Sequence record: NC_019767.1
From: Escherichia phage HK544
Length of the DNA: 40,155 nt
Reading direction: 5' to 3' (one strand)
Shown here: one piece after another, positions 487-40,155 of the stretch
How the letters are laid out: each line of letters begins with the position of its first letter
Numbering within the stretch: the first letter of the stretch is position 1
Made by a program: the position numbers and the translations under genes
Notes under the pieces: generated by a model
What the model was told of the DNA's origin: nothing
The model's database searches: none
What the model saw: only the letters and a program-made list of their open reading frames with translations

Positions 487-492
487 AAGACT

Positions 493-3281: not shown

Positions 3282-3286
3282 TTTTT

Positions 3287-3976: not shown

Positions 3977-3978
3977 TT

Positions 3979-5136: not shown

Positions 5137-5141
5137 TGGAG

Positions 5142-5165
5142 GGGGCGGGGAAACCCGCCCTTTTA
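5142..5165 (+). terminator. rho-independent terminator after the major capsid gene
   Basis: GGGCGGG-GAAA-CCCGCCC hairpin followed by TTTTAA. Confidence 0.55.
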
Positions 5166-5169
5166 ACGT

Positions 5170-6624: not shown

Positions 6625-6644
6625 CAATTAATTCACCCAACGAA

Positions 6645-6670
6645 CCCGCCAGATGGCGGGTTTTCTTTTT
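6645..6670 (+). terminator. rho-independent terminator / attenuator before the major tail gene
   Basis: CCCGCC-AGAT-GGCGGG hairpin followed by TTTTCTTTTT. Confidence 0.5.
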
Positions 6671-6683
6671 CCAGGAGACAGCT

Positions 6684-7388
6684 ATGTCTGCACTTTATGA
6701 AAAATCGCAGCTGACGAAGATCCTTATTTCCTCCCTGCCGTCCACCAAAGAAACGATGGATTCCGCCACCTTTCTCGATCTGAGTTGCACCATCAAAGAA
6801 ATTCAGTTCACTGGTGGCCAGAAGCAGGATATCGACGTAACAACACTTTGCTCTACCGAGCAGGAGAACATCAACGGCCTGCCTTCTCCGTCAGAAATCT
6901 CTCTGTCCGGCAACTTCTACAATAATCCAGCGCAGGACGCCTTGCGTGATGCGTATGACAACGACACCACTTACGGCTTCCAGATCATCTTCCCGTCAGG
7001 TAATGGTTTTAAGTTCCTGGCCGAAGTTCGCCAGCATACCTGGTCATCTGGTACCAATGGTGTTGTGGCAGCTACATTCTCACTGCGCCTTAAAGGCAAG
7101 CCTGTCCCGATTGACTCTGTACTTAAACTGACCACTGATCTTCCTTCCTCACTGTCTGTAGCGGTGGGGGCTGCGATCAGCATGGCTGTAGTAGCTGCCG
7201 GTGGTAAGCCTCCGTATGCCTACACCTGGAAGAAGGCAGGTAGCACCGTCAGCGGGCAGACATCCGATACCTTTAATAAAGCCACCGCAGTTTCAGGTGA
7301 TGCAGGTGATTACACCTGTGTGGTTACGGATTCTTCTTCTCCGGTCAAAACGGTTACCTCAGCTGCCTGCACCCTTACTATCAGTTAA
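6684..7388 (+). CDS. major tail protein with C-terminal Ig-like domain
   Basis: 234 aa, SD GGAGA upstream; C-terminal segment PPYAYTWKKAGS...GDAGDYTCVVTD resembles Ig-like decoration domains fused to lambda-V-type tail tube proteins. Confidence 0.7.
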   Translation: MSALYEKSQLTKILISSLPSTKETMDSATFLDLSCTIKEIQFTGGQKQDIDVTTLCSTEQENINGLPSPSEISLSGNFYNNPAQDALRDAYDNDTTYGFQIIFPSGNGFKFLAEVRQHTWSSGTNGVVAATFSLRLKGKPVPIDSVLKLTTDLPSSLSVAVGAAISMAVVAAGGKPPYAYTWKKAGSTVSGQTSDTFNKATAVSGDAGDYTCVVTDSSSPVKTVTSAACTLTIS

Positions 7389-7422
7389 TGGAGATGCCGG
7401 GTTGTCCCGGCATGGATAAGCG

Positions 7423-7809
7423 ATGTCGCAAACTTTAAAACAATTAGCCATGGCGAAAATGGCTGGCTTTCGCCATAAGACGGTCGTTGTCCCTGAGTGG
7501 GAAGGTGTCAAAGTGGTTCTCCGTGAGCCGTCAGGTGAAGCCTGGCTGCGCTGGCAGGAGGTGGTGAAAGGGGGGGGCGACGATGAAAATGTGTCGGTAT
7601 CGGAAAAGGCGCACCGTAATCTTTGCGCTGACGTGGTGCTCTTCATTGACGTTCTGTGTGACACCGATAAGCAACCGGTATTCAGCGTAGACGAAGAAGA
7701 GCAGGTGCGTGAAATTTACGGGCCAGTGCACTCACGTCTGCTCAAACAGGCGCTTGACCTGATCAACAATGCGGACGAAGCGCGGGAAAAGTCTCAACCC
7801 CCGGCGTAA
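7423..7809 (+). CDS. tail assembly chaperone (lambda G-like)
   Basis: 128-aa ORF between major tail protein and tape measure; acidic; followed by an overlapping -1-frame ORF (G/G-T arrangement). Confidence 0.65.
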   Translation: MSQTLKQLAMAKMAGFRHKTVVVPEWEGVKVVLREPSGEAWLRWQEVVKGGGDDENVSVSEKAHRNLCADVVLFIDVLCDTDKQPVFSVDEEEQVREIYGPVHSRLLKQALDLINNADEAREKSQPPA

Positions 7810-8096
7810 AGTTTCTGATGTCGCTTGCGCTCCGGATGGGGCGCACGCTCTCAGAGCTTCGGCAGAATATGACGGCAAGCGAGCTTCTGATGTGGATTGA
7901 GTACGACAGGCAAAGCCCGGTTGGCGATATTCGCGGTGATATCCATGCAGCGCAGATTGTCTCTGCCATCTACGGCTCGCAGGGGGCAAAAGTACCGCTG
8001 GACGATGCGATCCTGCGCTGGGGTGGTGATGAGCAATCAGAACCGAAGGACCCGTTTGCAGGGCTTGAGGCGGCACTTACAGCTGCGACACAATAA
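7758..8096 (+). CDS. tail assembly chaperone frameshift extension (lambda T-like), expected as a G-T fusion via -1 frameshift
   Basis: The -1 frame relative to G is open from 7758 to 8096 with no need for its own start; G ends at 7809; GGGAAAAG at 7784-7791 resembles the lambda G-T slippery site. Confidence 0.5.
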   Translation, partial: PDQQCGRSAGKVSTPGVKFLMSLALRMGRTLSELRQNMTASELLMWIEYDRQSPVGDIRGDIHAAQIVSAIYGSQGAKVPLDDAILRWGGDEQSEPKDPFAGLEAALTAATQ

Positions 8097-8153
8097 TTGC
8101 TTCACATGCCTTCAATGTAGCGATACGCTCTTTCCTTAAGTAAAGGAGGCGTT

Positions 8154-8342
8154 ATGGAACCACTGGTAGTAGTGTTTGGAATATTCGGCTGGCTGATAAA
8201 TCTAATTGTGATTTTTTATTTATTACGGTTTAGCACAAGGGCAAATGAACAAGTTGAAGCCCTTAAAGAGATAAATAAAAAGCAAGATGCGCAAATAGAT
8301 TTATTAATACAAGTCGCTCACCAAAGAAAAGACAGTTTATAA
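8154..8342 (+). CDS. small membrane protein (moron), N-terminal TM helix plus short coiled-coil
   Basis: 62 aa; strong SD AAGGAGG; hydrophobic N-terminus VVVFGIFGWLINLIVIFYLL; visibly AT-rich compared with flanking tail genes; own terminator downstream; paralogue of 13498..13722. Confidence 0.5.
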   Translation: MEPLVVVFGIFGWLINLIVIFYLLRFSTRANEQVEALKEINKKQDAQIDLLIQVAHQRKDSL

Positions 8343-8348
8343 CTCACG

Positions 8349-8372
8349 ACCCGCTATCAAGCGGGTTTTTTT
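8349..8372 (+). terminator. rho-independent terminator after the moron
   Basis: ACCCGC-TATCAA-GCGGGT hairpin followed by TTTTTTT. Confidence 0.55.
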
Positions 8373-8384
8373 ATGGGTGAAAAT

Positions 8385-11300
8385 ATGGCTACGTTGCGCG
8401 AACTGATCATCAAAATATCTGCAAACTCTCAGTCATTCCAGTCTGAAATTTCTCGTGCTTCAAGAATGGGGAATGACTATTACCGGGTAATGCAGACTGG
8501 AGGACGCCAATCGGCCGCAGCTTCGCGTGAAACTCAGCGTGCCTTGGCTGAGGTAACTAGTCAAATAAACACCGCGAAGGCCTCAGCACTGGGAATGGCT
8601 GGTGCATTTGCTGGAGCATTTGCCACTGGACATCTTATATCTCTTGCGGATGAATGGAGCTCAGTAAATGCCCGTCTGAAGCAGGCCACGCAGTCCAGCG
8701 ATGATTTCCAGGCATCACAGCGCGAATTAATGGCGATCAGCCAGAGAACGGGTACTGCTTTTGCTGATAACGCCAGTCTTTTTGCACGTTCGGCTTCTTC
8801 CATGCGGGAATATGGTTACAGGTCTGAGGAAGTACTGAAAGTTACCGAGGCCATTTCTACAGGATTGAAATTGTCCGGAGCCAGTTCTGCGGAAGCCAGC
8901 TCGGTGATCACTCAGTTCAGCCAGGCACTGGCGCAAGGGGTTCTGCGCGGTGAAGAGTTTAATTCAGTAAATGAAAGCGGTGATCGTGTTATTCGTGCTC
9001 TGGCTGCAGGAATGGGGGTTGCCCGTAAAGATCTGAAGGCAATGGCGGATGATGGAAAGCTGACCGCCGATAAGGTTGTTCCTGCACTGATTAGTCAGCT
9101 TGGTACGCTGCGGGATGAATATGCAGCCATGCCTGATACCGTATCATCCTCTGCAACCAAAGTTGAAAACGCCTTTATGGCCTGGGTTGGTGGTGCGAAT
9201 GATGCCAGCGGTGCAACAAAAACGCTTACCGGAATAATGAATGGTGTTGCGAATAATATTGATACGGTTGCCACGGCGGCGGGAGCTCTGGTTGCAATTG
9301 GTGTAGCCCGATATTTTGGCAATATGGCGTCTTCTGCGGGCTCTGCAACTGCCGGGTTAATCACTGCTGCCAGAAACGAAGTGGCTCTTGCTGAGGCACA
9401 GCTCAGAGGGACACAGATAGCAACAGCCAGAGCGCGGGCGGCATTGTATCGTGCGCAGCAGGCGGTTATGGCTGCCCGTGGTACAGAAAAACAGGCTGCA
9501 GCAGAAGCGAAACTGGCAACCGCACAGGCTTCACTTACCCGTAATATTGCTGCCAGAACAGCGGCACAGGCAACGCTGAATAACGTTACGTCAGTTAGTA
9601 GTCGGTTGTTAAGCGGTGCTCTGGGGCTGGTTGGTGGTGTGCCTGGACTTGTCATGCTGGGGGCGGCGGCCTGGTACACAATGTATCAGAACCAGGAGCA
9701 GGCCAGAGAATCAGCGCGTCAGTATGCCGCAACAATCGACGAAATTCGCCAGAAAACGTCTGCAATGTCACTTCCTGAAGCGGCAGATAATGAAGAAAAG
9801 ACGCGGCAGGCACTGGAGGAACAAAATCGCCTGATTAGAGAACAGGAAGGAAAAATTCGCGGACTGAAAAATCAAATTGCTGATTATCAACGTTGGCTTG
9901 ATGAAAGTTCGCAGAGTGGTTCGGGTGCTGAAATCATCCTTAAAGGGCTTGCCGAAGCAACAAATCAACTGGCAGTTGAACAGTCTCGCCTCACTCAAAT
10001 GCAGGGCAAAGCGCAATCCATTCAGGATGTGCTTGCCGGGCTGGAGGAGCGACGAGTGGCGTTGATCCGTCAACAGGCAGCGGAACAAAACAAAGCGTAT
10101 CAGTCCCTGTTGATCATGAATGGGCAGCATACCGAGTTTAATCGCCTTCTCGGGCTTGGTAATGAATTACTTCAGCAGCGACAGGGGCTGGTGAATGTAC
10201 CATTACGGCTGCCACAGGCAACCCTGGATGATAAACAGCAGACCGCACTGAATAACAGCAAGCGCGAACTGGCTCTGTCCCGCCTTAAGGGGGAAGCGCG
10301 TGAGCGTGCCCGACTGGGCTATGCTGCGGATGATCTCGGCTTTGTGGGGGAGGCATATCAGACAGCCAGACAGAATTATATCAATAACTCACTGGATGCC
10401 TGGCGAAATAACCAGGCAAATAAACCCAAAGCGCATAAAAAGACCGAAGCGGAAAAAACAGAAGATATTTATAAACGGCTGATTAAACAGCAAAAAGAAC
10501 AGATAGCACTGGCAGGGCAGAATACTGAACTGGCTAAGATGAAATATCAGGTCAGTCAGGGCGAACTTGCTTCTCTGACAGAAGCCCAGAAAAAGACGGT
10601 ATTGCAGAATGCTGCGCTGATTGACCAGGTTAAATTGCGTGAGCAACTGCGAAATTACGAAGCCAACCTTGCTGACAGTAACGCCAGCGCCCGCGCAGCC
10701 AATGAAGCGCAACTGCTGGGCTACGGGCAGGGAACCAGGTTCCGTGAAAGACTTCAGGAGCAGTTCAATCTGCGTAAGGAGTTTGAGCAGAAGAATACCG
10801 ATCTTCTCCGCCAGCGTCAGGCTGGTGAAATCGACGAGACGTTCTATCAGCAGGGGCTGGCACTTAATAAGCGCTACCTCGAAGAGCGCCTGCGCGACCA
10901 GGAGGGATATTACGCAGCTTCTGATGCGCAGCGTGACGACTGGATGACGGGACTGTCTGAGGGTTATGCGAACTGGGTGGACGAAGCTACTGATTATTCT
11001 TCCATGGCCGCTGACGGCATGAAGCAGGCCATGGGTGGCGCGGTCACCACGATCACCGACATGCTCAATGGCAACGTTGACAGCTGGAAGGACTGGGGCG
11101 TGAGCGTACTGAAGATCATCCAGAACGTTCTGGTGAACATGGCTGTTGCTAACGGCGTCAGTTCAATTGGTTCTCTCTTCAGCTTTGGCGCATCTTCCGC
11201 CGCTGCCGCCAGTAGCGGTACTGCAATTCAGAACGCTGGCGCGAACTTCACCTTTAACGCGAAGGGTAATGTTTACGACTCTCCGTCCCTGAGCGCATAC

Positions 11301-21059: not shown

Positions 21060-21370
21060 ATTGTGTTGTGTACCAAATTGCGTACCAAACTAAAATCACA
21101 AATCATGAAACCCTTGTTCATGGCGGTTCTCAGGGGTGTTTCGCGTAATCGTGAAAGAGGAAGGTAGGTTGTTTATCTGTGTCTGTCATTGTCTAGCATT
21201 GTCCACTGTAGTTAATTAACTGTCTGTTATAACTCGAAAAACAACCATTTTTTCACCTGAGTATGTCTACGAACGTCAAATATAGTTGTTTACTGTGCGC
21301 TGTTGTCCATGTGATATTGTGTACCAGATGTGTACCAACCCATTATTTCTGAGCGTACCAAATACTATTT
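21060..21370. other. candidate attP region with integrase arm-type repeats
   Basis: Five copies of (T/C)GTACCA(A/G) at 21070, 21082, 21321, 21332 and 21355; 12-bp perfect palindrome AGTTAATTAACT at 21210-21221; CATTGTC direct repeat at 21187 and 21197; noncoding, immediately upstream of int. Confidence 0.35.
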
Positions 21371-22549
21371 ATGGCTATAAGCGACACAAAACTGCGTACT
21401 ATTTATGGTAAACCATATTCGGGCCCACAAGAAGTGGCTGATGCCGATGGCCTCAGCGTACGAATTTCACCTAAGGGGGTCATCCAGTTCCAGTACCGCT
21501 ATCGCTGGCATGGCAAGCCTAATCGACTTGGGCTTGGTCGATACCCATCCCTGTCTTTGAAGGATGCCAGACAGATCACTGCTGACTTGCGAAAGCTCTA
21601 TTTCTCAGGAACGGATCCACGCACTTATTTTGAAGAGAAGGTGGAGAACTCCATGACGGTCGCCCAGTGTCTCGACTACTGGTTCGACAACTACGTCTCT
21701 ACAACTCTCAGAGAAAAGACCCAGGCACTTTACCGATCAACGGTTATGAAGCGCATGCATGACGCCTTTCCTAATCGTCCGGCATCTTCTATCACGGTTA
21801 AGCAATGGGTTGACCTGCTTACCGAAGAAGAAAGAGATAATCCACGCCGAGCAAGGCAGGTGCTAAGTCAACTAAGATCAGCAATAAGTTGGTGCATGCG
21901 GCGTCAGTTGATAGATAGTTGCGCAATTATGAGCATCCAACCAAGGGACTTCGGCTCCCGCGCTGAGGTAGGGGAGCGGGTACTGTCGTATCACGAACTG
22001 GCTAAGATTTGGCTTGCTATTGAAAGAAGCCGTGCGTCTACGTCAAATAAGCTCCTTCATCAGATGCTTATGCTGTGGGGGTCGAGGCTCTCAGAGCTTA
22101 GGCTGGCAACAAAGACAGAATTTGACCTGCTGGACAACGTATGGACCGTACCGAAAGAGCATAGCAAGATGGGTAATGTTATCCGCCGTCCAATCTTCGA
22201 ACAAATTAAGCCTTTTCTCGAAAAGGCCATGACAACATACAATGATGTTCTTTTCCCTGGAGAAGACATAAACAAACCGATCAGCATCGCTGCAGCCAAC
22301 CGATTCGTAAATAGAATAAGGGGAGGGATGGACATAGGTTACTGGCGAACACATGATTTCAGAAGAACGCTTGTTACACGGCTGTCCGAGATGAATGTCG
22401 AGCCCCATGTTACTGAGCGAATGCTCGGTCATGAACTTGGCGGGATAATGTCCGTGTACAATAAACACGACTGGATAGAGGCTCAGCGCAAAGCGTATGA
22501 GCTTCACGCTGATAAATTGTTCTGGCACATCAGGAACATTTCTGGTTAA
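21371..22549 (+). CDS. int: tyrosine site-specific integrase
   Basis: 392 aa; box II HDFRRT, MLGH and probable catalytic Tyr in SVYNKHDW near the C-terminus. Confidence 0.85.
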   Translation: MAISDTKLRTIYGKPYSGPQEVADADGLSVRISPKGVIQFQYRYRWHGKPNRLGLGRYPSLSLKDARQITADLRKLYFSGTDPRTYFEEKVENSMTVAQCLDYWFDNYVSTTLREKTQALYRSTVMKRMHDAFPNRPASSITVKQWVDLLTEEERDNPRRARQVLSQLRSAISWCMRRQLIDSCAIMSIQPRDFGSRAEVGERVLSYHELAKIWLAIERSRASTSNKLLHQMLMLWGSRLSELRLATKTEFDLLDNVWTVPKEHSKMGNVIRRPIFEQIKPFLEKAMTTYNDVLFPGEDINKPISIAAANRFVNRIRGGMDIGYWRTHDFRRTLVTRLSEMNVEPHVTERMLGHELGGIMSVYNKHDWIEAQRKAYELHADKLFWHIRNISG

Positions 22550-25389: not shown

Positions 25390-26358
25390 TTAGTAGGTTA
25401 TTTTTGTTGCGAATACTTCGCCTTTTACGATGGCTGTTATGATATTTTTAGCAACATCTTCTGATGCACCAACCTTGATAAGGTCAGCAAGTATTTTGTT
25501 ATTTACTTCTTTCCGGTGCGCTTTATCCTTTGCTCTACGCTCTTCTTCTTCCTTGATTCTTTTTTCTTCTGCTATTCTGGCTTGCTCTTTTGCTTCAGCA
25601 TCGCGACGGATTCGTTCAGCCTCCTCCTGTGCTTTTCTGCGTTCTGCTTCAATTGCTGCCTGCTTTTCTCTTTCAGCTCGTTCTGCTGCCTCTTTTGCTT
25701 CGCGCTGTGCTCGCTGCTCGGCTTCAATGCGTTCACGCTCTGCACGTTCCGCTGCGGCCTTAGCTTCTGCTTCTCGCCTTGCTGCTGCTTCAATTTCGGC
25801 TTTTGCCTTTGCTTCGGCTTCTGCTCTGGCTTTCTCTTCAGCTTCTCTTTTTAAGCGTTCTTCATGCTCTCGCTTTTCCTGCTCCGCTTTGAGTCTTGCC
25901 TCTTCTCTTTTGCGGTCAAATTCGCGATCCATCAAAATAGCTATTTCATGGTCAGACTCAATTTGCTTTGCGAGAGCTTCAGCTGCTGCCTTAGCTTCTT
26001 CTTCGGCTTTAATCCGCGCCTGTTCTTCCTCATAATCAGTAAGAGGCTGGCGCGCCTTGGCTTTCAGTTCATCAAGGCGATCACGCACTGTCTTGCGGTT
26101 GGCATCAATTAGCTTTGGAATTTCCTTCAGTTCAGCAACAAGGTCTTTGCCAAGACCATCGAGATATGTTTTCGTCTGCGCAACTTTATACGCCAGAGAA
26201 GCGATCTCCTTTCTGCCCTTTGCCGTTGTGATATCAGGCACAAAGGACATAACTTCACGTTCAACCTTTTGAAGGATTTCTTCAATCTGGTCTGCAGACT
26301 GAAATACAGTCATTGCATTTGCTTTTTCAATAACAACTAAATCTGTTACTTCACTCAT
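25390..26358 (-). CDS. coiled-coil protein with long low-complexity Ala/Glu/Lys/Arg repeat region
   Basis: 322 aa from MSEVTDLV (SD GGAGGA); central roughly 150 aa is (A/E/K/R)-rich repetitive coiled-coil; function unknown. Confidence 0.5.
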   Translation of the reverse strand: MSEVTDLVVIEKANAMTVFQSADQIEEILQKVEREVMSFVPDITTAKGRKEIASLAYKVAQTKTYLDGLGKDLVAELKEIPKLIDANRKTVRDRLDELKAKARQPLTDYEEEQARIKAEEEAKAAAEALAKQIESDHEIAILMDREFDRKREEARLKAEQEKREHEERLKREAEEKARAEAEAKAKAEIEAAARREAEAKAAAERAERERIEAEQRAQREAKEAAERAEREKQAAIEAERRKAQEEAERIRRDAEAKEQARIAEEKRIKEEEERRAKDKAHRKEVNNKILADLIKVGASEDVAKNIITAIVKGEVFATKITY

Positions 26359-26370
26359 ATATCCTCCGTC

Positions 26371-26398
26371 AAAAAAAACTGCCCTCACACTGGAGGGC
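26371..26398 (-). terminator. intrinsic terminator in the leftward operon (tL-like)
   Basis: On the - strand: GCCCTCCAGTGTGAGGGC hairpin followed by TTTTTTTT, directly upstream of the coiled-coil gene SD. Confidence 0.45.
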
Positions 26399-26534
26399 AA
26401 AGAAGATTTCCAATAATCAGAACAAGTCGGCTCCTGTTTAGTTACGAGCGACATTGCTCCGTGTATTCACTCGTTGGAATGAATACACAGTGCAGTGTTT
26501 ATTCTGTTGTTTATGCCAAAAATGAAGGCCACCA

Positions 26535-26735
26535 TCAGGCAGCCTTGTTGTTCTGTTTACCAAGTTCTCTGGCAATCATTGCCGTCGTTCGTATTGCCCA
26601 TTTATCGACATATTTCCCATCTTCCATTACAGGAAACATTTCTTCAGGCTTAACCATGCATTCCGATTGCAGCTTGCATCCATTGCATCGTTTGAATTGT
26701 CCACACCATTGATTTTTATCAATAGTCGTAGTCAT
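26535..26735 (-). CDS. ral: restriction alleviation protein Ral
   Basis: 66 aa, MTTTIDKNQWCGQFKRCNGCKLQSEC...; matches lambda Ral as I recall it; position just downstream of N. Confidence 0.65.
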   Translation of the reverse strand: MTTTIDKNQWCGQFKRCNGCKLQSECMVKPEEMFPVMEDGKYVDKWAIRTTAMIARELGKQNNKAA

Positions 26736-26813
26736 ACGGATAGTCCTGGTATTGTTCCATCACATCCTGAGGATGCTCTTCGAACTCTTCAAATTCTTCT
26801 TCCATATATCACC

Positions 26814-27140
26814 TCAAATAAGTGGTTTGCTGCCTAATTTCATTTTCTGGCGACCAACACAAGTCACACCCATTTCACTGCGTGGCTTGCTGTACCATGT
26901 GCGCTGATTCTTGCGCTCAATACGCTGCAGGTTGCTTTCAATCTGTTCGTGGTATTCAGCCAGCACCGTAAGGTCTATCGGATTCAGTGCGCTTTCTACT
27001 CGTGATTTCGGTTTGCGATTCAGCGAGAGAATAGGGCGGTTAACTGGCTTTGCGCTTACCCCAACCAACAGGGGATTTGCTGCTTTCCATTGAGCCTGTT
27101 TCTCTGCGCGACGTTCGCGGCGGCGTGTTTGTGCATCCAT
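26814..27140 (-). CDS. N: antitermination protein N
   Basis: 108 aa, MDAQTRRRERRAEKQAQWKAANPLL... Arg-rich motif; near-identical to lambda N as recalled. Confidence 0.9.
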   Translation of the reverse strand: MDAQTRRRERRAEKQAQWKAANPLLVGVSAKPVNRPILSLNRKPKSRVESALNPIDLTVLAEYHEQIESNLQRIERKNQRTWYSKPRSEMGVTCVGRQKMKLGSKPLI

Positions 27141-27408
27141 CTGGATTCTCCTGTCAGTTAGCTTTGGTGGTGTGGTGGCTGGTAGTCTAGCTCCAGCTTG
27201 TTGAGTCTCATTCGGAGGGGTATAACCGGCACCCCAGCGATTTTTCCATGCGACAACGTGCGCGTTATGGCGGCCTTATCGCCCGCGGCTCCCCATCTCG
27301 TCCACGCTATTGCTAGCGTTGGGAGCGCTTCACCGCTCAACAGTAGGTAAGCACTTGCCAGTGACTAGCTGGCTTCACCACACCCCAAAGCCTTCTGCTT
27401 TGAATGCT

Positions 27409-27438
27409 GCCCTTCTTCAGGGCTAAATTTTTAAGAGC
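27409..27438 (-). promoter_or_regulatory. nutL (boxA plus boxB)
   Basis: On the - strand: GCTCTTAAAAATTTA followed by GCCCTGAAGAAGGGC (boxB hairpin), between pL and N. Confidence 0.75.
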
Positions 27439-27479
27439 CTCACCTTCAATGGTGGTTAGTGCGTCCTGCTGATGTGCTC

Positions 27480-27543
27480 AGTATCACCGCCAGTGGTATT
27501 TATGTCAACACCGCCAGAGATAATTTATCACCGCAGATGGTTA
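27480..27543 (-). promoter_or_regulatory. pL promoter with operators OL1-OL3
   Basis: 17-bp operator-like sites TATCACCGCCAGTGGTA, CAACACCGCCAGAGATA and TATCACCGCAGATGGTTA; -35 TTGACA and -10 GATACT on the - strand. Confidence 0.8.
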
Positions 27544-27690
27544 TCTGTATGTTTTTTATATGAATTTATTTTTTGCAGGGGGGCATTGTTTGGTAGGTGA
27601 GAGATCTGAATTGCTATGTTTAGTGAGTTGTATCTATTAATTTTTCAATAAATACAATTGGTTATGTGTTTTGGGGGCGATCGTGAGGCA

Positions 27691-27714
27691 AAGAAAACCC
27701 GGCTCTGTGGCCGG
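27691..27714 (-). terminator. immunity-region terminator (tImm-like) ending the cI operon
   Basis: On the - strand: CCGGC-CACAGA-GCCGG hairpin followed by GTTTTCTT, 11 nt downstream of the 183-aa gene stop. Confidence 0.5.
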
Positions 27715-27724
27715 ATTTGCTAAA

Positions 27725-28276
27725 TTACTGACCTTTCTTAAGGTACAAGTTTATTAGGAAAAATATAGTTGGCATAGCAAGCGAGGCCAGGAGAACCCCG
27801 AGCATCCATACTTTTACATCTGCTATCTTGGTTTCCAAAGCGGAAAATTTAGCTTCAAAGTAGTCAACCGATGGTTTCTTAGATAATGAAGCATCAAAAT
27901 CCAGGCTCTTCTGTAAAAGTACAGCGGTGTCTCTTTTGGCGTCAGTAGAATCAGAAGATATTTTCCGGGTATCCTCTTTAATTCCTGCCATGCTGCTCTT
28001 GATGTGCGCAACTTCAGCTTCAAGAACTGCTAATCGCTTATCCATGTCGTCGCCTCCATCATCACTTGTTGTTTGAATGATCTCAGTATCATCCATCACA
28101 ACCGATGTGACAATCCGTTTTTCTTTATCTGAAGCAGCAACAGAACAAGCTTTCATCAAGAGCGTTGCTTGGCTTGATGCTACAGAAGAAAATTCCAGCC
28201 CTACTGTAGAGCCATTCTTATCAGAGTAAGCAATTACTAGCTTTCCCTCATCCAAAGATGATTGAGCTGCATTCAT
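27725..28276 (-). CDS. novel tail-anchored membrane protein in the rexB position (coiled-coil plus C-terminal TM helix)
   Basis: 183 aa; ATG 6 nt after upstream gene stop; central coiled-coil (KRLAVLEAEVAHIKSSMAGIKEDTRK); C-terminal hydrophobic helix VWMLGVLLASLAMPTIFFLINLYL then KKGQ; not RexB-like in size or topology. Confidence 0.55.
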   Translation of the reverse strand: MNAAQSSLDEGKLVIAYSDKNGSTVGLEFSSVASSQATLLMKACSVAASDKEKRIVTSVVMDDTEIIQTTSDDGGDDMDKRLAVLEAEVAHIKSSMAGIKEDTRKISSDSTDAKRDTAVLLQKSLDFDASLSKKPSVDYFEAKFSALETKIADVKVWMLGVLLASLAMPTIFFLINLYLKKGQ

Positions 28277-28282
28277 CAGCTT

Positions 28283-28564
28283 TTATTCCTCGAACATGCT
28301 TTTCAAGGACTGATAGAAATCGAAGGCCTTCTGTTTACTTAAAGTCACGGACGCAACCTTAGTGCGCTGCATTCCTGCCACTGCGATTTCGCCATTCATA
28401 TGGCCGATGACAGGGGTGCTATTGAGAAAAACGAAGTTAAAAACTTCGTAGCCATTGTTATCCGTTCCGATGGTTACAACCCCATCAGCATTAGTTTCAA
28501 TATAATTTTTGGACTCCAGCACATCATTGATATGTGCTAAGGAAACTTCTTGTTTATCGCTCAC
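28283..28564 (-). CDS. novel small soluble protein in the rexA position
   Basis: 93 aa; GTG start with SD GGAGAA 122 nt downstream of cI; motif GVVTIGTDNNGYEV resembles KLVIAYSDKNGSTV at the N-terminus of the downstream gene. Confidence 0.5.
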   Translation of the reverse strand: MSDKQEVSLAHINDVLESKNYIETNADGVVTIGTDNNGYEVFNFVFLNSTPVIGHMNGEIAVAGMQRTKVASVTLSKQKAFDFYQSLKSMFEE

Positions 28565-28686
28565 TTATGTTCTCCTGAACCAACAAAATAGGTAAAAATC
28601 TTTTCAATTTCATTAGATTAATTTGCATAAAAAGAACAGGGAAAAGTTGGATTACCAGCTATGCGCCGACCAGAACACCTTGCCGA

Positions 28687-29403
<717 letters not shown>

Positions 29404-29410
29404 TTAAATC

Positions 29411-29474
29411 TATCACCGCAAGGGATAAATATCTAACACCGTGCGTGTTGACTATTTTACCTCTGGCGGTGATA
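29411..29474. promoter_or_regulatory. OR3-OR2-OR1 operators with divergent pRM and pR
   Basis: TATCACCGCAAGGGATA (OR3, 29411-29427), TAACACCGTGCGTGTTG (OR2, 29434-29450), TACCTCTGGCGGTGATA (OR1, 29458-29474); pR -35 TTGACT and -10 GATAAT. Confidence 0.85.
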
Positions 29475-29491
29475 ATGGTTGCATGTACTAA

Positions 29492-29701
<210 letters not shown>

Positions 29702-29708
29702 ATAACCC

Positions 29709-29740
29709 CGCTCTTACACATTCCAGCCCTGAAAAAGGGC
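29709..29740 (+). promoter_or_regulatory. nutR (boxA CGCTCTTAC plus boxB GCCCTGAAAAAGGGC)
   Basis: Canonical boxA at 29709-29717 and boxB hairpin at 29726-29740 immediately downstream of cro. Confidence 0.8.
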
Positions 29741-29819
29741 ATCAAATTAAACCACACCTATGGTGTATGCATTTATTTGCATACATTCAATCAATTGTTA
29801 TCTAAGGAAATACTTACAT

Positions 29820-30098
29820 ATGCAACTTACAAGTACTCGCAAGAAAGCGAATGCAATTACAAGCAACATCCTGAATCGAATTGCTGTACGTGGTCAGCGA
29901 AAGGTTGCCGACGCGTTAGGGATTAATGAATCGCAAATTTCTCGATGGAAAGATAGCTTCATCCCAAAAATGGGAATGCTTCTGGCTGTTCTTGAATGGG
30001 GTGTTGAAGACGAGGAGTTGGCAGAACCGGCTAAGAAAGTAGCCAGAATGCTGACAAAAGAAAAAGCCCCGAAGAACGGCGAATTCTTCGAGGCCTGA
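29820..30098 (+). CDS. cII: CII-like transcriptional activator (non-lambda allele)
   Basis: 92 aa from ATG 29820 (SD TAAGGAAA); HTH region SQISRWK...MLLAVLEWGV resembles lambda cII, but N- and C-terminal sequences differ. Confidence 0.7.
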   Translation: MQLTSTRKKANAITSNILNRIAVRGQRKVADALGINESQISRWKDSFIPKMGMLLAVLEWGVEDEELAEPAKKVARMLTKEKAPKNGEFFEA

Positions 30099-30132
30099 TG
30101 TAGAAAGACTGGATCAATCCACAGGAGTAATT

Positions 30133-30294
30133 ATGACAAAACGTCGTAAGAAATACCAGGAAAAAGAAGAGATTCGACACCCTGATTCACCTGAGGGATT
30201 AGTGGTAGCCGCAGCAAATAACAGGGCGTTCGCAGAGCGCCTTGTTGGTGTTTACAGACTAGCCAAAGCAGGAGTGAAACATGGGCGTCGTTAA
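30133..30294 (+). CDS. small basic ORF (53 aa) between cII and the replication gene
   Basis: ATG 30133 with SD CAGGAG; Lys/Arg-rich N-terminus; 3' end overlaps the O-like gene start; below ORF-track cutoff. Confidence 0.3.
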   Translation: MTKRRKKYQEKEEIRHPDSPEGLVVAAANNRAFAERLVGVYRLAKAGVKHGRR

Positions 30295-31102
30295 GTTAGC
30301 TGATTACAGACCTCAACTGGAGGTCGTGGAGCATCGCGTGGCAGATACCGAAGATGGTTTCATGCGCGTTGCTAACGAGATTACCGACAGTCTGCTGATG
30401 GCTGATTTAACCGTCCGGCAGATGAAGGTGATGCTCGCTATCATGCGCAAGACATACGGATTCAATAAGCCGATGGATCGACTCACAAACACGCAGATAG
30501 CAGCCATGACAGGTATTCATCACACTCATGTTTGCGCTGCCAAGCGCCAGCTTATTGAGCGTAAATTCCTCATTGCTGATGGCGTGAAAATCGGAGTGAA
30601 CAAGGTGGTTTCTCAGTGGATTAGCCATGACAGCTTAACATTAGCTAAAACAGCTAATAAAACATTAGCCAAGTCGGCTAATGGGTATAAGCCAAGTCAG
30701 CTAAACACAAAAGACAATATACAAAAGACAATAAATACAAATACCCCCTTACCCCCTAGCGGGGGCGGCGATGGGCAGGTTAAACCTGAACGTCGCAAGG
30801 CAGAACGCATCGACTACGAATCCTTCCTGAACGCCTACAACACCGAAGTCGGTGACAGACTGCCACACGCTGTTGCGGTCAACGAGAAACGCAAACGCCG
30901 CCTGAAGAAAATCATCCCGCAACTGAAAACGCCAAACGTGGACGGTTTCAGAGCGTATGTCAGGGCGTTTGTACATCAGGCCAAGCCGTTTTACTTCGGA
31001 GACAACGACACGGGCTGGACGGCAGATTTTGATTACCTGCTGAGGGAAGACTCGTTAACGGGAGTTCGGGAAGGGAAGTTTGCAGACAGGGGGATTGCAT
31101 GA
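30281..31102 (+). CDS. replication initiator (lambda O-like N-terminal domain)
   Basis: 273 aa; segment [33 protein letters not shown] resembles the lambda O N-terminal region as recalled; internal iteron array; C-terminal half differs from lambda O. Confidence 0.7.
30621..30745. repeat. candidate replication origin: four palindromic 17-18 bp iterons plus AT-rich tract inside the O-like gene
   Basis: TTAGCCATGACAGCTTAA, TTAGCTAAAACAGCTAA, TTAGCCAAGTCGGCTAA and TAAGCCAAGTCAGCTAA at about 20-24 bp spacing, then ACACAAAAGACAATATACAAAAGACAATAAATACAAATAC. Confidence 0.5.
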
Positions 31103-32475
31103 AACAGGATATCGAAGCGAGCGTTATCGGTGGCCTGCTGATTGGTGGATTAACACCAACCGCCAGCGACGTTCTGGCAACGCTGGAGCCGGAAGCGTTT
31201 TCAATTCCGCTCTACCGGAAAGCCTTCGAGGTTATCCGCAAGCAGGCGAGAAACAGAAACCTAATCGACGCGCTGATGGTTGCCGAGGCGTGCGGAGAGG
31301 AGCATTTCACGTCAATCCTGATGACCAGCAAAAACTGCCCGAGTGCCGCAAACCTGAAGGGATATGCCGGAATGGTCGCGGATAACTATCACCGTCGTCT
31401 GGTGCTGGAAATCATGGATGAAATGCGTGAACCAATTCAGAGCGGAACCATCGATACATCGAGTCAGGCGATGGACGAGCTTGTAAAGCGTCTCTCAGCC
31501 ATCAGAAAGCCCCGTGACGAGGTTAAACCTGTACGGTTAGGGGAAATCATCACCGACTACACTGACACGCTTGACAGGCGTCTGAGGAACGGAGAAGAGT
31601 CAGATACCCTGAAGACCGGAATCGAAGAACTTGACGCTATCACCGGAGGGATGAACGCGGAAGACCTGGTGATTATCGCCGCTCGTCCTGGTATGGGGAA
31701 AACCGAACTGGCGCTGAAGATTGCCGAAGGTGTTGCAAGCCGTGTTATTCCTGGTTCTGACGTCCGGCGCGGAGTATTGATTTTCTCAATGGAAATGAGC
31801 GCATTGCAGATTGCAGAGCGAAGCATTGCCAACGCCGGGAGGATGTCGGTTAGCGTACTGCGAAATCCTGCATCGATGGATGACGAAGGCTGGGCGCGCG
31901 TTGCTAACGGCATGAATCAGCTTGCGGATTTGGATGTATGGGTAGTCGATGCATCGCGGTTATCGGTCGAAGAAATACGCTCAATCGCAGAACGGCACAA
32001 ACAGGAAAATCCAAACCTGTCACTCATCATGGCGGATTATCTTGGCCTGATTGAGAAGCCGAAAGCAGACCGCAACGACCTCGCAATTGCTCACATCTCA
32101 GGAAGCCTGAAGGCGATGGCGAAAGACCTGAAAACGCCTGTTATCTCCCTGAGTCAGCTTTCACGCGATGTTGAGAAGCGACCAAACAAACGCCCGACAA
32201 ACGCAGATTTGCGTGATTCAGGAAGCATTGAACAGGACGCAGACTCAATCATCATGCTCTATCGGGAAGCGGTATATGACGAGAACAGTAGCGCCGCGCC
32301 ATTTGCTGAAATCATCGTGACGAAAAACCGTTTTGGCTCGCTTGGTACGGTTTACCAGCGGTTCTGTAACGGACACTTTGTTGCATGTGACCAGGATGAA
32401 GCCAGACTGATTTGCACAGCATCAAATGCACCTGCTGCGCGTGGCAGACGATATGCGCAAGGGGCTGACGTATGA
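31099..32475 (+). CDS. replicative DNA helicase (DnaB family)
   Basis: 458 aa; Walker [15 protein letters not shown]; ATGA overlap with the O-like gene; P22-type replication arrangement. Confidence 0.85.
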
Positions 32476-32502
32476 CCATCTACATCACTGAGTTAATAAC
32501 AG

Positions 32503-32530
32503 GGGCTATTTACACAGTAGCCCTTTTTTA
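32503..32530 (+). terminator. intrinsic terminator after the helicase gene
   Basis: GGGCTA-TTTACACAG-TAGCCC hairpin followed by TTTTTTATT. Confidence 0.45.
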
Positions 32531-32556
32531 TTGGATTAAGAACGAGGGGAATCCTG

Positions 32557-32769
32557 ATGGACACCGTTAACGGAATGTGTTCAGACGCACCGCGTGCCAA
32601 GAAATGTAAATGCGGAAAATCACCGACAATATTCGACATGGAGAACGGGTGCCAAATCTACTGCGCTAACCACGCTGCTGTGGCGGCCGCGAATTATCGC
32701 AGTGCGGTAACGGAGTGGAATAACCTGAAATCTGTTAGAGAGGGAAGTCATGAAAAAACTAACCTTTGA
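32557..32769 (+). CDS. small Cys-rich protein (possible zinc-binding), hypothetical
   Basis: 70 aa with a CxC...C...C pattern; located between the helicase and ninB. Confidence 0.35.
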   Translation: MDTVNGMCSDAPRAKKCKCGKSPTIFDMENGCQIYCANHAAVAAANYRSAVTEWNNLKSVREGSHEKTNL

Positions 32770-33190
32770 AATTCGATCCCCAGCACATCAGCAAAACGCT
32801 ATTCACGCGGTACAGAAAATTCTTCCAGACCCAACCAAACCAATCGTAGTAACCATTCAGGAACGCAACCGCAGCTTAGACCAGAATCGAAAGCTTTGGG
32901 CTTGCCTTGGTGACGTCTCTCGTCAGGTTGAATGGCATGGTCGCTGGCTGGATGCAGAAAGCTGGAAGTGTGTGTTTACCGCAGCATTAAAGCAGCAGGA
33001 TGTTGTTCCTAACCTTGCCGGGAATGGCTTTGTTGTAATAGGCCAGTCAACCAGCAGGATGCGTGTAAACGAATTTGCGGAGCTATTAGAGCTTATACAG
33101 GCATTCGGTACAGAGCGTGGCGTTAAGTGGTCAGACGAAGCGAGACTGGCTCTGGAGTGGAAAGCGAGATGGGGAGATCGGGCTGCATGA
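32750..33190 (+). CDS. ninB: NinB recombination protein
   Basis: 146 aa, MKKLTFEIRSPAHQQNAIHAVQ.ILPDPTKPIVVTIQERNRSLDQNRKLWA...; near-identical to lambda NinB as recalled. Confidence 0.9.
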   Translation: MKKLTFEIRSPAHQQNAIHAVQKILPDPTKPIVVTIQERNRSLDQNRKLWACLGDVSRQVEWHGRWLDAESWKCVFTAALKQQDVVPNLAGNGFVVIGQSTSRMRVNEFAELLELIQAFGTERGVKWSDEARLALEWKARWGDRAA

Positions 33191-33714
33191 CTATCAAATC
33201 AAATACGCCAGCACACGACAAGGACTGCTGGCAAACGCCGCTTTGGCTTTTTGATGCACTGGATATTGAGTTTGGATTCTGGCTGGATTCGGCAGCGAGC
33301 GACAAAAATGCTCTGTGTGCTCACTGGCTAACTGAGGCCGACGACGCGCTCAATTCTGAGTGGGTAAGCCACGGTGCAATCTGGAATAACCCACCGTACA
33401 GCAATATTAGGCCGTGGGTGGAAAAAGCCGCTGAGCAGTGCATACAACAGCGACAGACGGTAGTTATGCTTGTGCCAGAGGATATGTCAGTCGGATGGTT
33501 CAGCAAGGCTCTGGAGAGTGTCGACGAAGTTCGCATTATCACTGATGGACGGATTAATTTTATCGAACCATCGACAGGGTTGGAGAAGAAGGGAAACAGC
33601 AAAGGCTCCATGCTGCTGATTTGGCGACCGTTCATCAGTCCTCGACGGATGTTTACTACCGTATCCAAAGCGGCATTGATGGCGATCGGGCAGGGCGTCA
33701 GGAGGGCGGCATGA
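33187..33714 (+). CDS. phage Dam-family DNA N6-adenine methyltransferase
   Basis: 175 aa from ATG 33187 (ATGA overlap with ninB); NPPY catalytic motif in [10 protein letters not shown]. Confidence 0.7.
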
Positions 33715-33887
33715 GGCGACAGCGACGAAGTTTCACCGACATCATCTGCGAAAACTGCAAATACCTTCCAACGAAACGCACCAGAAATAAACCCAAGCCA
33801 ATCCCAAAAGAATCTGACGTAAAAACCTTCAACTACACGGCTCACCTGTGGGATATCCGGTGGCTAAGACATCGTGCGAGGAAATGA
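33711..33887 (+). CDS. ninE: NinE
   Basis: 58 aa, [53 protein letters not shown]...; matches lambda NinE as recalled; ATGA overlap with the methyltransferase stop. Confidence 0.8.
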
Positions 33888-35871: not shown

Positions 35872-36491
35872 GACTCGAAAGCGTGGCTAAATTTCATTCG
35901 CCAAAAAGCCCGATGATGAGTGACTCACCACGGGCCACGGCTTCTGACTCTCTTTCTGGTACTGATGTGATGGCTGCTATGGGGATGGCGCAATCACAAG
36001 CCGGATTCGGAATGGCTGCATTCTGCGGTAAGCACGAACTCAGCCAGAACGACAAACAAAAGGCTATCAACTATCTGATGCAATTTGCACACAAGGTATC
36101 GGGGAAATACCGTGGTGTGGCAAAGCTTGAAGGAAATACTAAGGCAAAGGTACTGCAAGTGCTTGCAACATTCGCTTATGCGGATTATTGCCGTAGTGCC
36201 GCGACGCCGGGCGCAAGATGCAGAGATTGTCACGGTACAGGCCGTGCGGTTGATATAGCAAAAACAGAGCAGTGGGGGAGAGTTGTTGAGAAAGAATGCG
36301 GAAGATGCAAAGGCGTCGGCTATTCAAGGATGCCAGCAAGCGCCGCATATCGCGCTGTAACGATGCTAATCCCAAATCTTACTCAACCCACCTGGTCACG
36401 CACTGTTAAGCCGCTGTATGACGCTCTGGTGGTGCAATGCCACAAAGAAGAGTCAATCGCAGACAACATTTTGAATGCGGTCACACGTTAG
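35868..36491 (+). CDS. Q: late antiterminator Q
   Basis: 207 aa, [34 protein letters not shown]...; matches lambda Q as recalled; ATGA overlap with ninI. Confidence 0.95.
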
Positions 36492-36924: not shown

Positions 36925-37248
36925 ATGAAGATGCCAGAAAAACATGACCTGTTAGCCGCCATTCTCGCGGCAAAGGAACAAGGCATCGGGGCAATCCTTG
37001 CGTTTGCAATGGCGTACCTTCGCGGCAGATATAATGGCGGTGCGTTTACAAAAACAGTAATCGACGCAACGATGTGCGCCATTATCGCCTGGTTCATTCG
37101 TGACCTTCTCGACTTCGCCGGACTAAGTAGCAATCTCGCTTATATAACGAGCGTGTTCATCGGCTACATCGGTACTGACTCGATTGGTTCGCTTATCAAA
37201 CGCTTCGCTGCTAAAAAAGCCGGAGTAGAAGATGGTGGAAATCAATAA
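36925..37248 (+). CDS. S: holin S (dual-start S107/S105)
   Basis: 107 aa, [32 protein letters not shown]...; Met1-Lys2-Met3 dual-start motif; matches lambda S as recalled. Confidence 0.95.
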
Positions 37249-37708
37249 TCAACGTAAGGCGTTCCTCGATATGCTGGCGTGGTCGGAGGGAACTGATAAC
37301 GGACGTCAGAAAACCAGAAATCATGGTTATGACGTCATTGTAGGCGGAGAGCTATTCACTGATTACTCCGATCACCCTCGCAAACTTGTCACGCTAAACC
37401 CAAAACTCAAATCAACAGCAGCCGGACGTTACCAGCTTCTTTCCCGTTGGTGGGATGCCTACCGCAAGCAACTTGGCCTGAAAGACTTCTCTCCCAAAAG
37501 CCAGGACGCAGTGGCATTGCAGCAGATTAAAGAGCGTGGCGCTTTACCGATGATTGATCGCGGTGATATTCGTCAGGCTATCGACCGTTGCAGCAATATC
37601 TGGGCTTCACTGCCGGGTGCTGGTTATGGCCAGTTCGAGCATAAGGCTGACAGCCTGATTGCAAAATTCAAAGAGGCTGGCGGAGCTGTCAGAGAGATTG
37701 AGGTATGA
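37232..37708 (+). CDS. R: endolysin R (lytic transglycosylase)
   Basis: 158 aa, [39 protein letters not shown]...; matches lambda R as recalled. Confidence 0.95.
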
Positions 37709-38142
37709 GCAGAGTAACCGCGATTATCTCCGCTCTGGTTATCTGCATCATCGTTTGCCTGTCATGGGCTGTTAATCATTACCGTGATAACGCCATCTCC
37801 TACAAAGAGCAGCGCGATAAAGCCACATCCATCATCGCTGATATGCAGAAGCGTCAACGTGATGTAGCAGAACTCGACGCCAGATACACAAAGGAGCTTG
37901 CTGATGCTAACGCGACTATCGAAAGTCTCCGTGCTGATGTTTCTGCTGGTCGTAAGCGCCTGCAAGTCGCCGCCACCTGTGCAAAGTCAACGACCGGAGC
38001 CAGCGGCATGGGCGATGGAGAAAGCCCAAGACTTACAGCAGATGCTGAACTCAATTATTACCGTCTCAGAAGTGGAATCGACAAGATAACCGCGCAGGTT
38101 AACTACCTGCAGGAGTACATCAGGACGCAATGCCTGAAGTAA
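37705..38142 (+). CDS. Rz: i-spanin Rz
   Basis: 145 aa; N-terminal [28 protein letters not shown] as in lambda Rz, remainder divergent coiled-coil; Rz1 embedded in the +1 frame. Confidence 0.8.
37898..38089 (+). CDS. Rz1: o-spanin Rz1 (lipoprotein embedded in Rz)
   Basis: 63 aa wholly inside Rz in another frame; signal peptide with lipobox VVSAC (Cys22); Pro-rich mature part. Confidence 0.75.
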
Positions 38143-38174
38143 TTTTTTTGCAAATCACAAAGTCCATTTAATGA

Positions 38175-38197
38175 GCCTCGCGATGCGGGGCTTTTTT
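38175..38197 (+). terminator. intrinsic terminator after the lysis cassette
   Basis: GCCTCGC-GAT-GCGGGGC hairpin followed by TTTTTT. Confidence 0.45.
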
Positions 38198-38344
38198 GCA
38201 ATAAATGCGTACCGCAACGCATGTTTTTTACACCGAACCTGACCCTTTGGAATGGGCCTTTGAGGATACCAGTTAGTGCTGGCGAGCCTCGGTGGGCTGG
38301 TTTCCTGTGCGGCAAAGGTTCATTTCAAATGGTAGGTAAACGTT

Positions 38345-38866
38345 ATGAATATCGTGCCACTTAATTACAAAGGTGAAATTGTCAGTTTCAACACTGATGG
38401 TTGGATCAACGTCACAGGTGTTGCTGAGAGATTTGGGAAACGCATTGATAACTGGATGCGTTTGGCAGAAACGCTTGAATACGTTCGTGCTTTAGACGAA
38501 GCGTTGACCGGGAAAGAATCTCAAATTTTACATCCCTCACAATCGAGGTATGTAAAAACCAGCAAGGCACGAAAGGACAGGGGTGGTGGTACGTGGCTAC
38601 ATCCAAAACTTTCAGTTGCATTTGCCCGTTGGTGTGATGCTCGTTTTGCTGTGTGGTGCGACCTGCACATTGATAGTCTGCTTCGCGGTGAACTGACTGA
38701 GCAGCAGAAATATGAGCAAGCATGTCGCATTCGCGATGACCGGAAATCAAAAGCCAGCAATGGGGCAAGAGAGATGGCTCGCTGGCGATGGGATAAGCCG
38801 GTTATTGAAGCAAATGTCGAGTACTGGCGCGAGCAACTGCAGTTGACTCTCGATATCGCTTGCTGA
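38345..38866 (+). CDS. KilA-N domain protein
   Basis: 173 aa; N-terminal segment with WLHPKLSVAFARWCDARFAVW typical of KilA-N/APSES-type domains. Confidence 0.5.
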   Translation: MNIVPLNYKGEIVSFNTDGWINVTGVAERFGKRIDNWMRLAETLEYVRALDEALTGKESQILHPSQSRYVKTSKARKDRGGGTWLHPKLSVAFARWCDARFAVWCDLHIDSLLRGELTEQQKYEQACRIRDDRKSKASNGAREMARWRWDKPVIEANVEYWREQLQLTLDIAC

Positions 38867-39971: not shown

Positions 39972-40155
39972 CGCGGCGGCGGCAAGTCGATTATCTATCA
40001 TGTGAAATCATTTCAAATGCAACGATATCAAATGAGAATGAATCGCATTCATGGCAGGGGGGGGATCAAATCTTCAAAACCTTTGCCCTAAATGACCGCC
40101 GCCAAAGTTTGAATTTAACGCTAACCCGATTTTTTTAGTTTTAAGGTGTTGACAT

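Follow-up and report, generated by a model that had tools for sequence, protein, structure and literature searches.

Alignment of Escherichia phage HK544 (record NC_019767.1; the 40,155 nucleotides analysed here are called the window) with its lambdoid relatives reveals an abrupt change of module at the start codon of cII: identity to phage lambda runs through the final G of the cII ATG (position 29822) and stops there, and the gene that follows is the cII allele of HK620 and P22 C1 type. We are confident that this feature is a module boundary of a known lambdoid phage, located in a regulatory patch that the alternative modules have in common. It is an ordinary, recurrent lambdoid boundary; the phage is published, its modular mosaicism is already known and of the textbook kind, and nothing that we found departs from known biology. 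Around the junction, the window resolves into five blocks:

28652–29706: cI, OR and cro, lambda allele (also in HK97, HK542, HK244 and others)
29707–29802: nutR/tR1 leader, a separate module
29803–29822: shared patch TAAGGAAATACTTACATATG, common to lambda-type and HK620-type contexts
29823–30107: cII, HK620 type
30108–33884: orf53, O-like gene, DnaB-like gene and early nin genes, HK97 (97.7% nucleotide identity)

The lambda-like block, from 28652 to 29822 (cI, OR, cro, nutR, tR1, the cII leader and the ATG), corresponds to lambda 37192–38362 at 99.15% over 1171 nt, ungapped (blastn). All of its 10 mismatches lie within cI, with a single amino-acid change (P7L), and the part from 29382 to 29822 (OR, PR, cro, nutR, tR1, cII leader, ATG) is identical to lambda at 441 positions out of 441. 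Over the 100 bases after 29822, identity is 46/100, the 20-nt bins falling from 20/20 to 7–13/20. A preliminary description, made from the letters of the DNA, had proposed a mosaic junction at the cII start, preceded by lambda-like OR, cro, nutR and leader up to GTTATCTAAGGAAATACTTACAT-ATG (29797–29822, with the ATG at 29820). These claims are borne out; its wording that the sequence diverges within the first codons of cII is right as to the divergence, but the switch is sharper than that and coincides with the last base of the start codon. The features of this part of the window are as follows:

28687–29400, minus strand: cI repressor (Pfam HTH_3 and Peptidase_S24; 236/237 aa shared with lambda CI, the exception being P7L; EF120455 annotation)
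29411–29476: OR3, OR2 and OR1 with PRM and PR (EF120455 annotation shifted by +26543; same as in lambda)
29501–29701, plus strand: cro (Pfam Cro, E 6e-35; 66/66 aa shared with lambda Cro)
29707–29802, plus strand: lambda-type nutR/tR1 leader (alignment, nut motifs and partial matches covering query positions 108–223 only)
29803–29822: crossover interval (alignment; partial matches in E. coli end at 29822 or start at 29803)
29820–30098, plus strand: cII, HK620/P22-C1 allele, 92 aa (Pfam Phage_CII, PF05269, E 1.5e-41, residues 1–91)
29829–29842, minus strand: predicted CII box at the pRE -35, TTGCGAGTACTTGT, of the form TTGC-N6-TTGT (motif scan and EF120455 annotation)
30064–30096, minus strand: predicted intrinsic terminator, for an antisense RNA like oop; overlaps the cII 3' end (stem of 14 bp, then a T run)
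30108–30141: second shared patch, GACTGGATCAATCCACAGGAGTAATTATGACAAAAC (alignment; HK97 identity starts at 30108, HK620 identity ends at about 30141)

PR reads TTGACT-17-GATAAT at 29448–29476, and the stop codon of cro occupies 29699–29701. With cI, cro and OR1–3 all of the lambda kind, the phage would be classified as imm-lambda on sequence grounds. HK97 has cI and cro of the same type (97.3% over 28691–29715), as do several HK97-like phages, so that a direct lambda parent is not needed.

The drop at 29822 is so sharp that it rules out gradual divergence. A conserved upstream region followed by a cII gene that diverged in place through fast point mutation, with no exchange at all, would accord with the homology of the CII proteins (49% aa identity between HK544 and lambda, both Pfam Phage_CII), but not with a one-base step at which identity falls from 441/441 to 46/100. 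Moreover, in HK620, HK446, ECP1 and Stx phages, the HK544 cII allele, at 98–99% nucleotide identity, is preceded by unrelated leaders and unrelated immunity regions, and lambda-type cII is also found behind an HK620-type leader. This allele distribution effectively refutes in-place divergence, to which we attach practically no probability.

In the multiple alignment, the last base that differs from HK620 is 29802, the first that differs from lambda is 29823 and identity to 434 likewise extends to 29822, so that an exchange would have been resolved somewhere within 29803–29822. These 20 bp contain two signals of cII, the Shine-Dalgarno sequence AAGGA and the ATG, as well as the -10 of pRE, AAGTAT, read from the minus strand (29810–29815, EF120455 annotation). 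They are identical in lambda, 434, HK446, HK542 and HK620, and HK542 and HK446 align through the entire junction. The patch precedes both cII alleles and ends both alternative leaders. Linkers are short conserved sequences at module borders, common to alternative modules, where alleles reassort; the patch answers to this definition, being a short sequence common to alternative modules exactly at the switch. Since P22 and HK97 have other sequences at its position in the alignment, the patch is not universally required, and its identity elsewhere could be a relic.

The recurrence of the junction was examined by searching 5,426 complete E. coli genomes (megablast) with a 200-nt query centred on it (29723–29922), the whole junction being scored from 80% coverage of the query upwards, on uncurated alignments. 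This query matched 1,049 genomes, and the partial matches end at its base 100 (29822) or start at its base 81 (29803). As a reciprocal query, we used a synthetic chimera composed of the HK620 leader, the 20-mer and lambda cII. Scored in this way, the leader and cII types combine as follows:

lambda leader with lambda cII: 642/5,426 genomes
HK620 leader with HK620 cII: 317/5,426 genomes
lambda leader with HK620 cII, i.e., the HK544 junction: 80/5,426 genomes
HK620 leader with lambda cII, i.e., the reciprocal junction: 186/5,426 genomes

All four combinations are thus found and about 22% of such junctions are recombinant, although the genome counts are phylogenetically non-independent, with many clonal genomes, and a few ancient events could yield the same 2x2 table. 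Among phages, the reciprocal query is fully covered in CUS-3 and Gally, which have an HK620-type leader, the same 20-mer and lambda-type cII. In contigs representing one genome per species, the exact 56-nt junction was found in a single E. coli contig, from a draft assembly, and in none of the representatives of other species.

These occurrences also dispose of the idea that assembly or cloning created the junction as a chimera in the record. No point in favour of an artefact was found, and it is refuted by independent occurrences of the junction: the separate GenBank record EF120455 spans it at 100%, and the same junction is present in HK542 (99.0%), in the 80 complete E. coli genomes and in the E. 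coli draft contig. Its probability is, in our opinion, close to nil.

What is observed is the division into blocks, the common patch, the recurrent junction and the co-variation of N with boxB; the recombination mechanism is something that we infer. Homologous recombination inside 29803–29822, mediated by host RecA or by a Rad52-like annealing protein, e.g., the Erf that HK544 itself encodes, would be the most likely origin of the boundary, and we lean towards such a homologous exchange, albeit with reserve. The principal competitor is illegitimate recombination at an arbitrary site, the product being kept since a break at a gene boundary spares both genes and pRE, with a 20-mer that is incidental and conserved for its function. 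Such random joining followed by selection is a model reportedly proposed for the mosaicism of HK97 and HK022. It predicts a junction exactly at a gene start, as seen here; other boundaries share very little sequence, e.g., about 9 bp at boxA (29707–29715); both N and the O-like gene contain intragenic junctions; P22 and HK97 differ at the position of the patch, and 20 bp is short. Nevertheless, the junction has no gap and the 20 bp in which it falls are perfectly identical, the two reciprocal products are both found in nature, and more than 1,000 genomes show partial matches at the two edges of one patch; these three observations (ungapped junction, reciprocal products, repeated use of the same edges) are also those that count for homologous exchange. 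In experiments, moreover, mosaics form chiefly through homology-dependent exchange carried out by phage recombinases; those of Rad52-like type, an Erf among them, drive mosaic formation on short or diverged homology (PMC3945230). Altogether, arbitrary joining appears unlikely to us.

Two considerations weigh on the side opposed to exchange within the patch: functional constraint, or an exchange of older date, may account for the 20-bp identity, and 20 bp is short for RecA, the crossovers being placed in the patch from aligned sequences. One could go further and suppose that boxA, the 20-mer with its Shine-Dalgarno, pRE -10 and ATG signals, and the patch carrying the oop promoter and the start of the next gene are fixed, recurrent crossover points through which the nutR leader and cII swap independently among E. 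coli prophages, the 20-mer being kept partly as an annealing substrate for Erf or Red-beta and not for its signals alone. We put this forward as a conjecture that may be correct but is rather doubtful.

Why the boundary is tolerated can be approached from both of its sides, beginning with the leader. The nutR boxA (CGCTCTTA, 29709–29716) and boxB (GCCCTGAAAAAGGGC, 29726–29740) are the same as in lambda. The lambda-type leader as a whole occurs in identical or near-identical form in lambda, 434, lambda imm434, HK446, mEp213 and Louie, whichever cro precedes it, and is absent from HK97, HK620 and P22, each of which has another leader. Similarity to 434 and HK446 begins at 29707 and that to HK97 ends at 29715, with about 9 bp shared at boxA (29707–29715), which places the left edge of the leader at boxA, a universally conserved element.

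The leader type goes with the N protein, through the specificity of N for boxB, and not with cII. The specificity of N for boxB is established. The window, lambda and HK446 combine boxB GCCCTGAAAAAGGGC with an N that has the arginine-rich motif MDAQTRRRERRAEKQAQW, whereas HK620 and CUS-3 have the N motif NARNRRRARRQAQ, a different boxB and the other leader. Residues 1–22 of the HK544 N are the same as in lambda N, and the nutL boxB, GCCCTGAAGAAGGGC, is as in lambda, the nutL boxA reading GGCTCTTA. With the boxA and boxB of nutR and the lambda arginine-rich motif in N, the N/nut system is of lambda type. The boundary would thus be tolerated in so far as boxB in the leader must match an N encoded beyond the immunity region; because the leader is tied to N in this way and cII is free, a nutR/cII boundary would be viable in either combination.

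On the other side, the cII product shares 98% of its amino acids with HK620, 85% with P22 C1, 49% with lambda CII and 26% with HK97 cII. The predicted CII box (29829–29842) lies within cII codons 4–8, and the lambda box (38369–38382) has an equal ungapped offset from the ATG. As expected for the CII family, a TTGC-N6-TTGY box straddles the predicted pRE -35, with its -10 in the leader and in the lambda register. A crossover in the patch, being ungapped, would keep this geometry and produce a hybrid pRE, its -10 coming from the leader and its CII box with the cII allele. A TTGC-N6-TTGC box is also found inside Q (36155–36168, minus strand), where lambda has paQ and where a C1 site (a23) is annotated in P22. 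Since boxes are present at both pRE and paQ, the foreign cII allele would still find its targets; cII would need only TTGC-N6-TTGY boxes, and these would be available at the two promoters whichever allele is present. A further TTGC-N6-TTGC sequence, at 29853–29866, was not retained as an additional CII site, because boxes of this kind number 7 in the window vs. about 5 expected by chance and one of its half-sites is not conserved in P22.

The oop-like terminator lies at the 3' end of cII, in allele-specific sequence; its predicted fold has an energy of -27.9 kcal/mol (z -4.3), and its position matches the annotation of the P22 oop terminator. Beyond the cII stop, even lambda and P22 retain the second patch, GACTGGATCAATCCACAGGAGTAATTATGACAAAAC, which carries the ribosome-binding site and the start codon of the next gene. 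The predicted oop promoter also falls in this patch, the P22 oop promoter annotation mapping to 30130–30158. With shared patches on both sides, cII qualifies as an exchangeable cassette, the patch after the stop being what would allow its right-hand exchange. Three closely spaced boundaries set this cassette off: boxA (about 29707–29715), the cII start (29803–29822) and the post-stop patch (30108–30141).

Downstream of the cassette lies the replication module:

30133–30294, plus strand: small ORF, homologue of HK97 gp53 (PHROG 1331, E 1e-37; within the 97.7% HK97 block)
30281–31102, plus strand: O-like replication initiator of HK97 gp54 type (Pfam Phage_rep_O, E 4e-33)
30620–30704: four 18-nt iterons, consensus ATTAGCCAAGTCGGCTAA (repeat search; spacing 20/24/23 nt)
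31099–32475, plus strand: DnaB-type helicase, 458 aa, at the position of lambda P (Pfam DnaB_C, E 7e-78; DnaB N-terminal domain, E 4e-13)

The preliminary description had announced an O-like initiator with non-lambda iterons and a DnaB helicase in place of lambda P, and both are found. The iterons match those of lambda (39034, 39054, 39078 and 39101) in number (4), length (18 nt) and spacing (20/24/23), but differ in sequence. They are those of HK97 and are different from the P22 iterons, TTTACCAGATCGGTAAAA. An AT-rich stretch that follows them (30705–30734) is common with P22. The O-like protein is 99% identical in amino acids to HK97 gp54, 49% to P22 gp18 and 32% to lambda O, and the helicase is 99% identical to HK97 gp55 and 90% to P22 gp12; at the nucleotide level, P22 is about 80% identical, from 30697 onward only. 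Calling this a P22-type replication module is thus apt for its kind, as a DnaB-family helicase replaces a loader of lambda P type, but not for its nearest relative, which is HK97. The helicase is P22-like, as is the O-like gene in its C-terminal half; in the comparison with P22, neither a gp18-type origin-binding domain nor P22 iterons were found, and the O-like protein has the N-terminal domain of HK97, not that of P22.

At the scale of the genome, the window is a cos-to-cos HK97-like genome, aligned from base 1 with mEp234, HK446 and HK97, and its last 49 nt equal HK97 1–49. In the phage collection searched, its best whole-genome relatives are mEp234, HK446, HK633 and HK97 (96–98% over 52–85% of each query half). 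Identity of at least 90% (blastn) extends over 27,126 nt for HK97 (about 68% of the window) and over 6,544 nt for lambda (about 16%; vs. J02459). The head genes, earlier described as HK97-like, are so at 97.2% over 1–9319. Outside the junction region, the lambda-like blocks (blastn) comprise ral (96.8%), N (92.6%), OL/PL (97.6%), ninB (96.2%), a nin-region segment at 33718–33884 (98.2%), nin from about 34279 through Q (97.4%) and S-R-Rz (93.0%). Had the lambda-like blocks, that of the junction region included, not been near-identical to lambda, their earlier identification would have been mistaken, but they range from 92.6 to 99.1% when aligned. Of the Erf/SSB recombination genes proposed earlier, Erf is confirmed (Pfam ERF, E 2e-44), as is Abc2, whereas the adjoining 'SSB' matches PHROG 44 (E 1e-28) without any Pfam match. 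The ORFs in the rex position and in the early-left region gave no match with PADLOC or Pfam, and an Rfam scan of 26000–31500, at E up to 1, returned no curated nut, oop or tR1 family. The block map of lambda, HK97 and HK620/P22-type segments obtained with blastn agrees with the earlier view of a clear modular recombinant. Judged from its genes, HK544 combines a virion, recombination and replication backbone of HK97 type with a lambda immunity set (N, nutL, OL, cI, OR, cro, nutR) and a cII of HK620/P22-C1 type.

Much of this is known ground. The immunity region of HK544, including the junction, has been in GenBank since 2007 (EF120455); all 3564 nt of that record equal positions 26544–30107 of the window at 100% without a gap (blastn), and its annotated features (cI, OR1–3, cro, nutR boxA and boxB, pRE, the CII binding site and cII) agree in position with ours. 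The region is said to have been reported by Degnan et al. in 2007 (Mol Microbiol 64:232). The modular theory reportedly goes back to Susskind and Botstein in 1978, and boundary or linker sequences of lambdoid phages were reportedly described by Clark et al. in 2001 for HK620. The CUS-3 record contains annotated 'bsq' features, with no boundary sequence annotated at cro–cII in the stretch of the record inspected. HK544 (Kwaitsingvirus HK544) is in present laboratory use (PMC11364771). In a paper from 2022 that deals with co-transfer among lambdoid phages (PMC9836094), there is no mention of cII, nutR or breakpoints. The 2x2 table of leader and cII frequencies is our own count, and a published equivalent was not found.

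To this, the analysis adds three modest elements: a base-resolution boundary of cII, i.e., a 20-bp patch of overlapping Shine-Dalgarno, pRE -10 and ATG signals; the segregation of the nutR leader with N and not with cII; and a population count in which all four combinations of leader and cII occur in natural E. coli prophages. The cro–cII interval thereby offers a handy natural test of homologous exchange at short linkers vs. random joining and selection.

Compared with known systems, HK544 resembles HK97 (NC_002167) in its virion genes (97.2%), its erf region (95.4%) and its cI/cro of lambda type (97.3%), but HK97 has its own nutR leader, its own N and its own cII (26% aa identity), and similarity to it ends at 29715, inside boxA, to resume at 30108. 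Lambda (J02459) shares cI, OR, cro, nutR, the cII leader, N, OL/PL, ninB, nin through Q and S/R, whereas its cII is another allele (49% aa identity) and its rexAB, Red/Gam, O/P and virion genes are absent from HK544. P22 has the same form of CII box, TTGC-N6-TTGT. HK620, whose cII is of the same type, differs from HK544 in having a leader (boxB) and an N of another type, and O and P that are unrelated alleles (29% and 34% aa identity). CUS-3 is a P22-like podovirus with the reciprocal junction. Finally, HK542 has the same junction, with lambda immunity and leader and an HK620-type cII (98.6–99% across 28686–30309), its O-like gene changing to another allele after about 28 nt.

The final 49 nt of the window (40107-40155) are those of HK97 positions 1-49, which implies that the window is a complete genome, with position 1 of the record lying 49 nt downstream of the left cohesive end of HK97. 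At the cII start, an in-frame ATG at 29760 would lengthen the reading frame to 112 aa (29760-30098), and it is from this upstream codon that cII is annotated in the genome records of HK446 and HK542. In EF120455 (the GenBank record of the HK544 immunity region) and in lambda, cII starts at the ATG corresponding to 29820, the one equipped with a Shine-Dalgarno sequence; the 112-aa call is probably an annotation artefact. Beyond cII, six further features are of note:

within 21189-22549, plus strand: integrase of 392 aa, with Arm-DNA-bind_3 and Phage_integrase domains
25390-26454, minus strand: ORF of 354 aa, assigned to PHROG 1376, a family without assigned function
26814-27140, minus strand: N gene, a mosaic with parts matching lambda N and CUS-3 N
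27409-27439, minus strand: nutL, with boxA and boxB
27725-28564, minus strand: two ORFs of 183 aa and 93 aa, between cI and OL
30620-30760: junction inside the O-like gene, at the boundary of the iterons and the AT-rich stretch

None of lambda, HK97 and P22 shows similarity to the integrase region, and the int genes of lambda and HK97 lie in the opposite orientation. A TTGT-N6-TTGT box is found at 21189-21202 (plus strand), 170 nt upstream of the integrase; this may mark a promoter from which CII activates int, or the match may be due to chance. The segment holding the 354-aa ORF is likewise not present in lambda, HK97 and P22. This ORF, which has no Pfam match, contains a long, repetitive, coiled-coil-like segment rich in Ala, Glu, Lys and Arg, and a relative is annotated as “TolA” in one mEp234 record.

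Between cI and OL, where lambda carries rexA/rexB, the window has two unrelated ORFs, which yielded zero matches in Pfam and PADLOC and fall in PHROG families 12602 and 12039, both without assigned function; the 183-aa ORF has a hydrophobic C-terminus. Their place in the cI operon suggests a role in exclusion or defence, with expression in the lysogen.

The N gene is itself a mosaic: the greater part of its product, with the arginine-rich motif, is lambda N, and the final ~25 residues (SKPRSEMGVTCVGRQKMKLGSKPLI) match the end of CUS-3 N exactly. At its N-terminus, CUS-3 N is of the HK620 type. In nutL, boxB (GCCCTGAAGAAGGGC) is common to the window and lambda, while boxA reads GGCTCTTA in the window and CGCTCTTA in lambda. 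Finally, within the O-like gene, the iterons are HK97-specific; lambda also has four iterons of 18 nt, spaced 20/24/23, but with different sequences. The AT-rich stretch (ACACAAAAGACAATATACAAAAGACAATAAATAC...) is identical to that of P22 and similar to that of lambda.
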